Shown: positions 10,217-21,366, counted from the first letter of the stretch. The stretch is 54,408 nucleotides of DNA from Wenzhouxiangella sp. (GCA_041744195.1 JBGTLI010000238.1:1-54408); one strand, 5' to 3'. Program-made: numbers and translations. The notes: generated from the letters alone by a model not told the origin.

Positions 10217-13200
10217 ATGCGGCAGTTTTTGCATGTGGGGCTGGTCCTTGCGGCCGGTGCGCTGTTGATGTCATGGGGACAGGCCGAAACACCGCCGCCA
10301 CCGGCGCCGGATCCGAACCTCGCGATCGACACGGTAAGTGCTAGTGTCGGCGCTTCGCGCGGCGCGTTTCGCGTGACCGAAACCGGTGCGGCGACCTACA
10401 GCCTCCCGATAATGACCGCCCCTTCGGGCGGCGGCATGGCCCCGGATATTTCGCTGGACTATAACAGCCAGTCGGGCGGTGGTCTGGCCGGGCCGGGTTG
10501 GAACCTGTCTGGGCTGAGCGCGATCAGTCGCTGCGCGCAAACCCGCGAAGCCGGTGATCCGCGTCCGCTGGGCGTCGACCTGACTGCGACCAACCGGTTC
10601 TGCCTCGACGGCCAGCGCCTGATCGTCTCGAATGGACTTGCCTATGGAGCGGATGGCGCCGAATACCGGACCGAAGTCGACCAGATCCTGCGCGTGCGCT
10701 CGCACGGTTCGGTTGGCGGCGGGCCGGCCTGGTTCAAGGTCTGGCGCAAGGACGGCACCATCGCCTGGTACGGCGCTGGCGACGATGCTGGCGCCAACCA
10801 TTCCTCGCGGGTGTCGAGCAAGGTCGGCGCGGCGCCGGTCTTTGCCTGGAACCTGGGAAGAATCGCCGACAGTGCTGGCAACTTCATGGTTTTCAATTGG
10901 CAGGACTGGCACCCGGGCGATACCAACGTTCAAACCACCCTGTCCTCGATTCAATACGGCGGGCATGACAGCGGTCTGGCGACCAACCATCAGATCTTGC
11001 TGACCTATGCCGACCGGCCTGTGGTGGAGCAGTCGACCGGCTACTCGGCCGGGGCCAAATTCAAGTCCACCAAACGGCTGACACAAATCCACAGCCTTGC
11101 CGCCGGTGTGGAACTGCGCCGTTATAACCTGACCTACCGCGCCTCGACCGCGGACAGTGCCGATAGCGGTTTGCTCGCCTCGATTCAGGAATGCAACGGA
11201 ATCCTGTGCCTGCCGGCAACTACCCTGGACTGGAACACCGCGACGCTGGCGCTGGCCGCGACGGGCACCAGTCCGACGGCCGAGTTTCAACTGGGTAGCA
11301 ACGTGGTCCACCCGCAGCCCGCCGACATCAATGGCGATGGTCTGATTGATCTGATCTTCATCGAAAAACAGAGCAGTTCGACCGCGCCGATCATTAAATG
11401 GCGGCTGAGCGTGCAGCAAAGCAGTGGTTATCCGGTCTTCGGCGCGCTCGTGAACGGGCCGTCAATGCACGCCGGAGTTAAATCCAACGGCGAGATTCCC
11501 CAGCTGCACCTGATCGATATCAACGGCAACGGCTTCAACGATGTGTTGTACGCGGTGCCCAACAGCACTGGTGGTGGCGGCAATTTCTACGCCCATCTGC
11601 GCAGTGGTACAACCTTCGGCAGCGCGCTGCTGGTCGGAAGCTACACTGGCTCGGCCAGGCGTCTGCAGCCGATGGACTGGAACGGCGATGGCCGCACTGA
11701 CTTGGTTTATCAATTCGGCGGCGGTGACTGGGGCAGCCCGTCGCTGTGGATCGCCGAGCACAAGGGTTTCAATCCGTCCAATCCGAGCGGAACCTTCGTG
11801 CAACAAAGTGGCAGCACGCCGTTTCTGAAGTCGCAGCACAGCCCGCTCAACACCGGGTATCTGCATGAGCCCTTGCAGTTTTCGATCCACCTGGACCGGG
11901 TCGCCGATACCAATGGCGACGGTTTGGCCGATTTGGTGATTGAAGTTCGGCATCGCTACTGCGTATGGGACTGTCCGTTGATCCAGAGTGTTCCCGGTGA
12001 TGACGAACTGGACGGGGAAGCGGGTAGTGATGGAGAAGCCGATCCAGAACCCGGCATTGGCACTGGCGAAGAAGGCAACGACGGCCAGATCGAATTCGGA
12101 AATGCGGTCTATGAGACCCGCGGTTTCATGGTGTTGTTCGAAATGGTCTGGGATGCGGCCAACAACCGGTTTCGGCTCGAAAGCCGCACGGTGCTGGGCG
12201 GCACACCCGACGACCAGACCGGCACATCGCCGAGAATGACCGAACTGCGACTGGTCGATGTCAACGGTGATGGTTTGGCGGATCTTGTGTACTACGATCT
12301 GCAAGCCAACCAATGGCGGTTCAGAATCAATACCGGCAAAGGCAACTTCCTGGCCGCCACGCAGATCACGACCTGGCCGACCGATGTCGGTTTGCGAAAG
12401 TACATTCAATTGGTCGATATCAGCGGCAACGGCCATCCGGACGCTTTGATTCCGACCAGCCACAACAGCACCACGGCGATGTGGCAGATCTCGAAATGGA
12501 ATCGCAGCCTCAATAGCGGCGAAGGCGGATTCGGCACGTTGGTCGCGACCTCCGCGCTGGCTGGCAAGTTCACCGACGGCGCACAATCAATCTTCGCCGA
12601 CTTCAATGGCAACGGTCGCACCGATCAACTGTTGCTGCGGCCGTCGTCCGGCAACCTTAACGTCACGCGATTCTGGGGCGTCAACAGTTCGAGTTTCTCG
12701 CCGGCCTACGACGGTCACTTTATGCTCCGGCGCATCACCGACGGGCTCGGCGCCTGGACCCAGTTGAGCTACAAGTCGCTGGTTCAGCGTTCGATCCACA
12801 CCCGCGACCGAAATGCGCCCTACATCGGCTACGGACTGGGCTCGGCGGTCTACGACATCGTTCCGCCGATCTACGTGGTCTCGGCCGCAACCAGTCTGGC
12901 CCCTCAATACACCCTCAACGCCACCGCCACTGGCAGCACCTATGCCGCCACCGGCACCGCCCAGGTCGACTACTACTACGCCGGGGCCAAGATCCAGGCC
13001 GGCGGGCGCGGGTTTCTGGGGTTCCGGGAAGTCGCGAGCTGGGATCCGCAAAGCGGCCTGCTCACGCGCACCCGCTACCACCAGGACTTTCCGTTTATCA
13101 GTTTGCCCGAAGAAACCCACTCCTGGTACAAGGCCAGCGCGCCGTGGACGGCGACTGACACCGTCGCGCCCCTGGTGCCGTGCGCCACCCCGCCGTGCGC

Positions 13201-16200
13201 CAACACCGCCATCGCCACCAACGGTGTGCTGCTGGGTCGGGCCTTGAACACCTGGTCGGAGCGCGCCACCGTTGCCGGTCTGACCCTTCCGTATCTGGCC
13301 AGAAGCGAGGAATGGAGCTATACCCCGAGCTACACCTCCGGCAGCCTGACCGGCAGCGTATTCACCCACCGGGTGGTGACCGAAAATTCCAATCTCGACG
13401 TCTATGGCAACCTGGGCCAGGTATCGACGGCCACTTACACTTCGACTTCCGGCACCGGCAGCCTGGTCGCCCGTCAAACGGCGGTCAACACCTACACCAA
13501 CACCGCCAGCACCTGGCGGCTGGGTCGGCTGACCTGCGTTGTATCCACCAGCGAACGTCCCGGTCAGACCACCCAGACCCGGCGTTCGAGCTTCGGGTAC
13601 GACGCCACGACTGGCATCCTGATTCGCGAGACCGTGCAACCCACTGATTGTGGTACCACCGGTGCGGCGATCAATACCGTTCACACCCTGGATCAGTTCG
13701 GCAACCAGTTGGAAACCACGGTCACCGCCTCCGATCTGGCCGGAAGCCGCCGCAGCCTGAATGTGTACGACACCCGCGGGCGCTACGTCGATCAGCAAAG
13801 AGTCTTCATCGGCGGCGCCTGGCGCACCGTCTCGCAAGTCATTTCCCGCGATGCTTACGGCAACCCGACCGAGGTGCGCAACGCCCAGGGTGTGAGCGCG
13901 CTTCAAAAGTATGACGCTATGGGCCGGCTGCAAACCACCCGGTCTCCCGACGGGGCCTGGTCGCGGGTGCTGCACCGCCTTGGCACAGTCTCGCAATGCC
14001 CGACCGGCACGGTCTTCCGGGAAGAGCACACCGGCCTGGCCACCGGCACAACCTATATCGACGCCTACGTGTGCAAGGATGTGCTCGGCAGAGAGATCCG
14101 CACCGCTAGCCGCGCTTTCGAAGGCGGTTGGATCTATCGTGACATCCGCTACGACGCCGTCTCGCAGCCGATCGAAGCGTCCGCGCCCTACCGCGCCGGC
14201 CAGACCGCCCACTGGACCCGCACCGTGTACGACGAAATCGGCCGCGTCGAAGCGGTGCGCGTGGCCGACCCGGCCAACGGCAACCCGCTGGAGACCTGGA
14301 CCTATAGTGGTCTGAGCACCACCCATGTCAATGCGCTGGGCCAGTCGACCACCGTGGTCAACAACCCGCTGGGCGAGAAAGTCTCCGAAACCGCCCCCGA
14401 CGGCGGGATCACCACCCACGGTTACGACGCGCTCGGTAACCTGCTGTTCTCCGACGGACCGCTGACGGGCACCGGCGACCGGATCACCATCGCCTACGAC
14501 GCGCTGGGCCGCAAATCCCAGATGTCAGACCCCGACAAGGGCATCTGGCAGTACCACTACAACGGCCTGGGCGAACTGATCTGCCAGCGCGACGCCAAGA
14601 GCCAGGGCACGTTATTCGCCTACGACGAGCTTGGCCGCCAGACCAGCCGCACCGATCTGACCGGCGTGACCAATGTAACCACCTGCGCCGGCACCCAGCG
14701 CGGCGCCACGACCTGGACCTACGGCATCGCCCAGTTGCTACCGACTTCCGGACGGCTGCTGACGGAATCTTCGCAATACGCCGACGGCGTCGGCGCCGAC
14801 CACACCACCTCGCGCAGCTTCAGCTACGACTCACTGGGCCGGGACAGCCAGGTCTCGACCACCATCACCGACGGAACCTTCTCCCGCACCTACGTCGAAT
14901 CGACCACCTACGACGAGTTCGGGCGGGTGTTTCAAAGCTTCGACGCCAGTGGCAACAGCCGCGGCATCCGCTACCTCTACAACGCCCGCGGCTACGTCAG
15001 CCAACTTCGGGAAAGTCGCGGTGGGACCACCGGCCAGGTTTACTGGACGATCCAGGCGATGGATGCGCATGGCAACGTCACCCAGGGATTGATGGGCAAC
15101 AGCACCCAGGTCGCGGCCAGTTACGACCAAGCCACCGGCGCGGTATTGCATCTGCAGGATGCCACCGGCACCACCCTGGCCCAGGACCTGATCCTTAAGT
15201 GGGATGCGCTGGGCAACCTGACCGAACGGCGCGACTGGTCGGGCAACCGCGACCAGGAAGAGCGGTTCTGGTACGACGCCAGAAACCGACTGACCCGAAC
15301 CGACTCCAGAACCAACGGCGGTACCTGGACCAACAGCCGTCAGGTTCAGACCTACAATGTCGCCGGCAACATCCTGACCAAGACCGGGCTGGGCACCTAT
15401 ACCTACGGATCGACCCGGCCGCACGCGGTGACCAGTTCCGGGGGTGTCACCTACACCTACGATGCCAACGGCAATGTCATCAGTGATACTTCGGGGAGGG
15501 CTTTCCACTACACCAGCTTCGACCTGATCCGCCGGGTCAGCCAGGGCACGGCCCACACCGAATTCCATTACGCCGCCGGGCGCGGACGCTCCCTCAAGCG
15601 GGAACTGTCCGGCACCACCGTCCAGTCCCGCACCCACTACCTGGGCAACGTCGAAGTGATCTGGAACGGTTCCAGCCCCGGCACCGGGGTCGGTCAATAC
15701 CGGCGCTACATCGGCGGCATGCTGATCGCGACCTGGTACCAGTCCACCGGCGTTGATCAATTGCGCTACCTGCACACCGACCATCTCGGCTCGACCACCG
15801 CGATCACCGACGAGGCCGGTCAAGTCGTGACCTGGATGAGCTACGACCCCTGGGGACTGCGTCGCCATGCCGATGCCTGGCACCCGTGGACCGCCCCGCC
15901 ATCGGTGTATCTGAACGCCATGCTCGCGGTCACCCCGCGCGGCTTCACCGGCCACGAGCACGTCGATAACGCCGGCATCATCCATATGAACGGACGAATC
16001 TACGACCCGAGGCTGGGAAGGTTCCTCCAGGCCGACCCGTTCATCGAAGACGCCAGCACGCTGAACCGCTACACCTACGTCCACAATAACCCGCTGGCCT
16101 ACACCGATCCGAGTGGTTTCTTCAGTTGGAAGAAGGTATTGAAGATCGCGGCAATGGTGGCGATTTCAGTGGTCACCTACGGTGCGGCATCGGCCTACTT

Positions 16201-21110: not shown

Positions 21111-21113
21111 TTG

Positions 21114-21366
21114 GCCGGCAGGATGTGTACGATAGCAATAGGTGAAAATTTTGCTGGAACACGACGCAAATACAAATCGGCGCTGCGGTTCTTTTGTTGT
21201 TGTCTATAAATTGCTGGATTATGGCGCTGATTATCGAAAGGAAAGCAGTGCCGGTCAGACATTGCTTGCGATCGCGTTGGAGAAGAAGCCGATGATGGAT
21301 CCGCGACATGAGCTTTATCAGTGGCTGGAGCGGGTGATTGCCTGGCTGGAGTCGAGGGACAATTGA
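21114..21366 (+). pseudogene. Ankyrin-repeat immunity-like fragments
   Basis: ILLEHDANTN...VYKLLDYGADY...WLERVIAWLESR. The first 66 bp are 59/66 identical to 18113-18178. Confidence 0.6.

Follow-up and report, generated by a model that had tools for sequence, protein, structure and literature searches.

Organization of the predicted toxin locus

We analyzed a contig of 54,408 nucleotides from Wenzhouxiangella sp. (GCA_041744195.1 JBGTLI010000238.1:1-54408; this whole stretch is referred to as the window) carrying a locus that had been predicted, from the sequence, to encode an exported toxin with TcB- and TcC-like parts fused in one polypeptide, followed by lipoprotein immunity genes. The features of the locus are listed in Table 1; its nearest named relatives were found in Wenzhouxiangellaceae. 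The toxin open reading frame (ORF) started with an ATG and had a purine-rich site upstream. Pfam and NCBIfam placed SpvB at residues 55-230, FG-GAP repeats, TcdB_toxin_midN at residues 789-956, RHS repeats and the RHS core at residues 1876-1967, and six FG-GAP-like Ca loops were located at residues 370-803. The DPSG motif at residue 1964 left behind it a cargo of 330 aa and 33.7 kDa, of which the first 170 aa were 37% Gly+Ala and which carried an HEQAH motif at residue 2246. The linker matched a Gly-zipper family weakly and under the cut-off (E 0.0026). The architecture given in the original prediction (SpvB/TcB-like start, FG-GAP repeats, RHS core with DPSG, Gly/Ala segment and HExxH in one ORF) was located in full, and the SpvB, TcdB_toxin_midN and RHS core profiles all matched on the toxin ORF.

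Table 1. Positions of the features of the toxin locus within the window
Feature	Position	Strand	Basis
Predicted Sec signal peptide (residues 1-23)	10217..10285	+	own hydropathy rule
Full-length toxin gene, 2,297 aa, ~246 kDa	10217..17110	+	ORF, Pfam/NCBIfam, residue scans
TcB-like region: SpvB, FG-GAP propeller repeats, TcdB_toxin_midN	10379..13084	+	Pfam, profile matches, model, Foldseek
RHS-associated core; holds DPSG and the two autoprotease aspartates (D1940, D1964)	15842..16117	+	TIGR03696
Conserved Gly/Ala-rich hydrophobic pre-toxin linker; 3' part is a repeat common to the orphan cassette	16118..16606	+	
HExxH...E zincin-like tip (H2246, E2247, H2250, E2279), no Pfam family	16634..17107	+	
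Lipoprotein 1, predicted cognate immunity, overlaps toxin stop codon	17110..17511	+	lipobox
Second HExxH tip, 5'-truncated, 53% identical over 86 aa, without linker repeat	17513..17773	+	
Lipoprotein 2, lipoprotein 1 family; 51% identity to the gene that follows L080's intact tip	17770..18120	+	
Broken ankyrin-type immunity remnant	18141..18390	+	blastx to ankyrin lipoprotein of L011, E 1e-8
Small element, 28-bp terminal inverted repeats; fragments also present on other contigs	18510..18771	no strand	
DUF4410 lipoprotein, not tip-adjacent; marks local synteny in sister loci, at their 3' end	19043..19657	+	
Orphan cassette: AHSQG alpha/beta-hydrolase-like tip preceded by a 284-nt repeat (93% identity with 16316-16599)	19845..20720	+	
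Lipoprotein 3; homologue (60%) after remnant of AHSQG orphan tip in L080, L091	20733..21110	+	
Ankyrin lipoprotein 3' remnant, of the kind found after lipase tips	21142..21366	+	76% over 59 aa to L005
43-bp remnant of second DUF4410 gene	21520..21562	+	

A profile built from 54 N-terminal regions gave matches of 1e-29 to 1e-32 to YenB and TcdB2; its matches to lectins and integrin propellers were weaker. Toxin residues 31-970 were modeled by AlphaFold with a predicted local distance difference test (pLDDT) score of 81, and the 13 best Foldseek matches of this model were TcB chains (TMq 0.50-0.57, 13-16% identity), followed by SGS1. The autoprotease aspartates were invariant in the homologues covered (D1940 in 103/103 and D1964 in 102/102). 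Since both aspartates were invariant and the N-terminal region matched TcB by profile and fold, a shell with an autoprotease is supported by homology. From these residues we infer that the aspartyl autoprotease cleaves after DPSG.

Localization was called by a hydropathy rule of our own, which takes the most favorable start and was applied alike to toxins and neighboring genes. The toxin was positive for a signal-like start, as were 96 of the 115 homologues starting with Met; 5 of the 120 homologues did not start with Met and were left out, and many of the negatives resembled late start calls. The same rule was positive for 8/342 internal segments and for 248/683 long genome ORFs. The toxin has 14 cysteines in 2,297 residues (0.61%), against a median of 0.85% in 636 raw genome ORFs. 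By pairwise BLAST mapping on related sequences, C106 and C129 were kept in 119/119 homologues, C326/C331 behaved as a pair (both present in 110, neither in 7 and discordant in 2), and C1107/C1145 and C1456/C1490 co-varied; the cysteine number was even in 75 of 95 scaffolds. The CVWDC and CATPPC motifs were poorly kept (C582 in 40/117, C586 in 49/117, C989 in 42/115 and C994 in 20/115). The earlier claim of many paired cysteines was thus borne out for the pairing, with C106/C129 and C326/C331, and failed on the number and on these two motifs. Taken together, the signal-like start and the conserved cysteine pairs fit export by Sec and folding with disulfide bonds in the periplasm, as had been proposed.

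The GC content was 0.63-0.66 in the scaffold and linker and dropped to 0.51 in the tip and lipoprotein 1, the pattern expected when cassettes are exchanged. Lipoboxes were visible in the sequences of lipoproteins 1, 2 and 3. The three downstream immunity candidates are therefore tip-adjacent lipoproteins as predicted, but a fourth lipoprotein in the interval, the DUF4410 protein, had been missed, and it does not follow a tip. The interval examined by the original prediction ended within the locus, at the ankyrin remnant, and its second tip proved to be a truncated copy. Pfam had no match for the three tips or lipoproteins 1-3, and NCBIfam none for the tips or lipoproteins; a word-based search returned one close homologue of lipoprotein 1. 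For the orphan tip, the Atlas lead was DUF900, on 17% of members (score 0.95). The orphan block was marked as the duplicated 3' end of a sister locus because of the 43-bp DUF4410 remnant. In a 95%-identical relative (L116 of G072), the flanks and the same DUF4410 gene were kept and the toxin gene was reduced to fragments; other tip and lipoprotein remnants precede the DUF4410 gene there. DUF4410 was considered as a required partner and rejected, being present at only 4 related loci, all close kin. A scan for promoters and terminators gave 10 promoter-like sites where 4.6 were expected and was not used.

Tips, neighboring genes and delivery partners in related genomes

The HExxH tip had 580 relatives among 50%-identity representatives, and HExxH was kept in 145 of the best 150. 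In an alignment of 96 rows, the motif residues H, E and H were present in 95, 94 and 96 rows and the downstream E in 80. The tip was modeled with a pLDDT of 92.6 and a helical HExxH segment; the HExxH helix and the downstream Glu ligand that mark a gluzincin-type zincin were both present. The tip had no match in Pfam, Tox-MPTase models included, nor in Foldseek at E 0.001. A wide fold search placed the VgrG2b effector domain on top (Z 3.8, root-mean-square deviation 4.3, 94 aligned residues, 10% identity), with many zinc proteases in the rows beneath. In Atlas, the tip found nothing at 0.9; the best match reached 0.89 and an eCIS_core cluster 0.83.

The same tip family was followed by homologues of lipoproteins 1/2 in L004, L070, L080, L081 and L091 (E 1e-9 to 1e-37). 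The alignment of this lipoprotein family comprised 11 proteins; the neighbors in L081, L099 and L106 were left out, and those in L082, L090, L101 and L103 are weak members. In L080 and L091 a piece of the orphan tip lay directly 5' of the lipoprotein 3 homologue. Prediction of the tip-lipoprotein complex gave weak support, with a median of 0.35 (runs of 0.82, 0.02 and 0.35) against 0.00 for the best of 3 controls, a contact agreement of at least 7% and a partner pLDDT of at least 58. The mark used was reached by 116/157 solved and 2/215 mismatched pairs, and a score of 0.60 or less while reaching it was seen in only 18/157 solved pairs and in both passing mismatches. Stand-alone tip homologues with no immunity-like neighbor were noted in L084, L086, L088, L093, L095, L102, L105, L107 and L110, and three of these adjoin a gene that we read as mtnA-like. 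It is possible that the stand-alone ORFs are a housekeeping form of the domain.

A GTDB scan with the core and linker gave 478 matches, of which the best 80 were taken and 77 loci, related to each other, were kept. An SpvB-like cysteine motif was present in 38 of the 43 clade ORFs of at least 1,900 aa. The cargo was near constant in length (median 339 aa, 72 loci), while its tips were diverse: 71 tips fell into 61 clusters. Few of them had Pfam names (lipase-like, DUF4329/JAB, CHAP, eCIS_core, metallopeptidase, Tox-ART-HYD1 and Ntox44, several under the cut-off). At 66 of 74 loci (3 of the 77 had no next ORF) the gene after the tip looked exported, 24 as lipoproteins and 42 by a signal or membrane segment, and at 8 it looked cytoplasmic. 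By the same rule, 257 of 793 genes following long genes of the source genome were exported (39 lipoproteins; 139 had no next ORF). By tip motif, the next gene was exported after 10/11 HExxH, 5/5 lipase and 9/10 JAB tips, and ankyrin proteins followed 4 of the 5 lipase tips. These counts uphold the claim of polymorphic tips paired with exported genes. On the other hand, in L022, L120, L123, L126 and L128 tips that we take to be nucleases had cytoplasmic neighbors, and since cytoplasm-type tips go with cytoplasmic neighbors the scaffold is not confined to envelope attack. The clade tends toward targets in the envelope, and the scaffold can also serve cytoplasmic ones. Envelope attack, as originally proposed, thus fits the tips of this locus, by their predicted nature, while relatives with cytoplasm-type tips had been overlooked. 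Recurrent neighbors were limited to transposase-like ORFs (13 and 5 loci; labels by reading), orphan RHS pieces and the local DUF4410 synteny. The commonest was one transposase-like ORF family at 13 loci within L022-L079, for example L023:10113-11210. L124, L126 and L127 adjoin genes read as extracytoplasmic function (ECF)-like and Ser/Thr kinase-like, a possible local regulatory module.

TcA, VgrG and PAAR families had no match among the 41 window proteins scanned, and the source genome (91.7% complete, 414 contigs) had no match for TcA, TssC, Hcp or PF05488. Controls for the TcA searches in this genome were silent, and a class-level control was run instead, in which 7 of 121 class genomes were over the cut-off (6 without the unpublished genome G126, on which nothing else rests). 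None of the 93 family genomes had TcA, and they include near-closed carriers, G024 for example. The toxin N-terminus was present in 20 of these 93 genomes (the carriers), and TssC in 13 of the 93 and only 1 of the 20 carriers. An extracellular contractile injection system (eCIS) tube was found in 6 carriers and VgrG-like genes in 6; TcA, TssC, VgrG and the eCIS tube were all missing from 13 of the 20, and from 6 of the 13 high-quality ones. Among them, G024 (4 contigs, 99%) encodes an intact 4,472-aa copy; in G023 an insertion splits the toxin copy, and this genome was dropped as a clean example. The absence of a TcA or type VI secretion system (T6SS) partner claimed for the window thus extended to the genomes for TcA, and nearly so among the carriers for TssC. 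The genome search suggested with that claim had a more mixed outcome: no TcA or PF05488 match, two type II secretion system (T2SS) clusters, and a single VgrG-like gene, which lies outside the window within an eCIS cluster. This cluster (contig C306, ~4200-16550) comprises tube and VgrG-like genes together with genes that we read as sheath, baseplate and PAAR-like. It is unusual for the genus as sampled, since the tube gene was found in 0 of 5 further carriers from the genus.

Co-occurrence did not discriminate exit by the T2SS, since GspD is near-universal (89/93 family genomes). No conserved export partner was found among 1,063 downstream ORFs of the 77 loci or in 20 family loci, and no partner gene was conserved on either side of the toxin genes. 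Exit of the toxin is supported as independent of TcA and T6SS. Contigs C153, C68, C243, C138, C42, C57, C322 and C123 of the source genome carry four further SpvB-like genes together with several other RHS genes. By our reading, the C153 gene (64% identical) has a JAB-like tip, and the gene on C138 combines a long cargo and a nuclease-like tip.

A proposed mechanism and its alternatives

We consider it fairly probable that the locus encodes a stand-alone antibacterial toxin, a single TcB-TcC-like chain that is exported by Sec, folds in the periplasm and attacks the envelope of rival bacteria, with the lipoprotein predicted to protect the producer. The signal-like start and cysteine pairs suggest that the chain would first be exported and folded with disulfides in the periplasm. 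The TcB-like region and RHS repeats would then form a closed shell, and the autoprotease would cut after DPSG with the 33.7-kDa cargo inside; this cargo was counted in favor of a cocoon since it stays below the 40 kDa that Tc cocoons are reported to hold at most. The outer membrane would be crossed without TcA, T6SS or eCIS, as the genome counts indicate. At the target the propeller may bind the surface and the Gly/Ala linker may insert in the membrane, carrying or anchoring the tip. Motif, fold and gene pairing of the HExxH tip point to a periplasmic zinc protease that would be bound by its lipoprotein. Finally, the linker repeat and the GC drop suggest that tips would be exchanged by recombination in that repeat.

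Several observations weigh against this account. Toxicity, cleavage, secretion and neutralization are all predictions. The source genome is incomplete, the match of the tip to the VgrG2b fold is weak, and our localization rule visibly miscalls in both directions (L017, L042, L061 and L135). The 77 loci were selected by core/linker similarity and are mutual kin, and one of the 8 loci with cytoplasmic neighbors has an ADP-ribosyltransferase tip (L013). No exported gene abutted the tip domain in 27 of 36 metagenome loci, and the nine of these that were inspected are stand-alone ORFs of ~150-240 aa, so that the tip fold need not be a toxin. We know of no T2SS substrate as large as the 246-kDa shell or its 4,000-aa relatives.

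Of the exit routes we rank the T2SS first, although tentatively, vesicles or lysis second, as a less likely route, and export by way of the protein's own SpvB-like domain, or display on the surface by it, third, as an unlikely one. An alternative that keeps the same toxin and envelope target, with exit by vesicles, lysis or the SpvB-like domain and no part for the T2SS, has in our view close to an even chance. The size of the protein (246 kDa, with relatives over 4,000 aa) speaks for it, as do the neighbor clusters, which contain no T2SS gene, unlike the gspG-linked Rhs families of Xanthomonas, for which T2SS secretion was itself called unconfirmed (10.1101/2025.05.08.652813; this and the other publications cited were available in part, and statements on them refer to those parts). 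From models in Escherichia coli, the step across the outer membrane was attributed to the SpvB-like N-terminus of TcB (PMC3789776). On the other hand, the source genome has two T2SS clusters, and a 1,398-aa RHS bacteriocin was inactive in an xpsD mutant (PMC7259588).

The protein might instead be a non-lethal surface adhesin or kin-recognition protein, comparable to teneurins and SGS1, with tip and lipoprotein as a ligand-receptor pair. The best PDB sequence matches of the core and linker start (SGS4, a teneurin-like protein and SGS1), the resemblance of the FG-GAP region to lectins and integrins, and tip homologues that occur alone without immunity would be in line with this. We regard it as improbable, given that clade tips match lipase, CHAP, JAB/DUF4329, ADP-ribosyltransferase and metallopeptidase families, that catalytic motifs are intact, that orphan cassettes are present, and that the bacterial teneurin-like proteins turned out to be toxins with immunity genes (PMC13018210). 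That the locus makes a Tc-type toxin against eukaryotes (protists), with a distant or unassembled TcA, would be suggested by the true TcB homology and the incomplete genome. It is very unlikely in view of the absence of TcA from all 93 genomes with a working control, of immunity-like genes that have no counterpart in the Tc loci described (PMC7861908), and of the Sec-type start, which is missing from TcB and TcC in the account available (PMC3789776). Least probable of all is loading of the protein or its cargo on the eCIS or on a T6SS: the eCIS cluster on C306 and the tube genes of 6/20 carriers would allow it, but the tube is missing in 14/20 carriers and TssC in 19/20, and it is disfavored because both systems load cytoplasmic proteins, a feature hard to reconcile with a signal peptide and disulfides.

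If the preferred account of a stand-alone, Sec-exported envelope toxin is extended to the clade, such syringe-free cocoon weapons, aimed by the propeller and with a linker carrying cargo through the target outer membrane, might be widespread in gammaproteobacteria as a main arsenal of envelope toxins. We consider this extension doubtful; if true, the arsenal would hold dozens of undescribed families of tips and lipoprotein immunity. The many unnamed tips paired with exported genes would in any case make new envelope targets accessible to test.

Elsewhere in the window, a further FG-GAP protein is encoded at 114-929. At 2717-6548, a 962-aa alpha/beta-hydrolase carrying an Ig-like domain precedes a protein whose match to a PEP-CTERM family was sub-threshold, and a secreted trypsin-like protein (21652-22842) lies directly 3' of the toxin locus. 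A multi-domain glycosyltransferase (GT1/GT2) of 1,575 aa is encoded at 28565-33292, and its gene and the neighboring ones lie on opposite strands.

Comparison with known systems

A literature search, with subscription journals mostly outside its coverage, found no experimental study of a toxin combining a signal peptide, SpvB, FG-GAP and RHS. Nothing was found in print on the strong skew toward exported neighbors, on the conservation of the Gly/Ala linker, or on the HExxH tip and its family of lipoproteins, although the additional file of Zhang 2012 may include such tips or immunity families. Exit and cargo release of RHS shells without TcA or T6SS were stated to be open in 2026 (PMC13018210), and this clade makes the exit question testable, with many cultured carriers and, in G024, an intact copy in a near-closed genome with no known syringe.

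VgrG2b is an HExxH toxin that acts in the periplasm and has envelope immunity, and with Tpe1 and their partners PA0261/Tpi, lipoproteins included, it resembles the tip and immunity described here (PMC6899460). However, VgrG2b and Tpe1 are T6SS-delivered, the tip shares 10% identity with the VgrG2b domain at Z 3.8, and their immunity family was unmatched at the locus. The Xanthomonas perforans RHS toxin Bcn-A is active in the supernatant and loses its activity in an xpsD mutant; it differs in its 1,398-aa length, in requiring accessory ORFs and in that no SpvB/propeller region is described in the available part (PMC7259588). Bacterial teneurin-like toxins are also RHS shells with a Sec signal; their toxic C-termini are polymorphic, an immunity gene lies downstream, and their delivery is called unresolved. 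They have a teneurin superfold and TIP domain rather than SpvB/TcB, and the Gram-negative ones are lipoprotein-anchored (PMC13018210). The mosquito protein SGS1 is likewise a single chain that forms a Tc-like shell with propellers and keeps hydrophobic helices inside, after the RHS core, but it is a eukaryotic salivary protein described without an immunity gene (PMC9935623). SpvB is already in use as a trafficking marker (10.1101/2021.10.19.465003).

The closest relative in print is the TcdB/TcaC class that Zhang et al. outlined from genomes in 2012 (PMC3482391), with a signal peptide, SpvB, an integrin-like propeller, RHS repeats and a length peak of ~2,200 aa, found in gammaproteobacteria and listed with metallopeptidase and JAB-2 tips. 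The locus resembles it in its signal peptide (by our rule), SpvB and propeller, RHS, variable tip, orphan cassettes and immunity-like gene. In that collection nucleic-acid-targeting tips are dominant overall and Imm65 is the only lipoprotein immunity, whereas in our clade 24/74 next genes are lipoprotein-like and 66/74 exported. TcdB is listed there as an associated export gene, whereas the locus has no conserved partner and carries its TcB-like part inside the toxin; its HExxH tip matches no Pfam Tox-MPTase model. The locus is a member of this class and its architecture is not new, a definition that the original prediction had missed while describing the architecture correctly.

For Tc toxins, B-C fusions, a cocoon cargo below 40 kDa and loci without immunity genes are reported (PMC7861908), B and C genes or fusions without A have been noted, and TcB is described without a Sec leader (PMC3789776). 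The locus resembles the Tc BC pairs (TcdB2-TccC3 and YenB-YenC2) in a TcB-like fold over ~1,030 aligned columns, in the RHS core aspartates and in a cargo below 40 kDa. It differs in being one chain with a Sec-type start, cysteine pairs, more FG-GAP repeats and immunity-like neighbors, with no TcA and 13-16% identity. Set against Tc (ABC) toxins, it has the shell and autoprotease, lacks TcA (0/93), and departs from them in its leader and immunity gene; what marks a T6SS Rhs effector (PAAR or a linked vgrG/adaptor, together with a T6SS in the genome) was absent. The locus is predicted to work like a Tc BC cocoon, but is neither a Tc toxin nor a T6SS Rhs effector.

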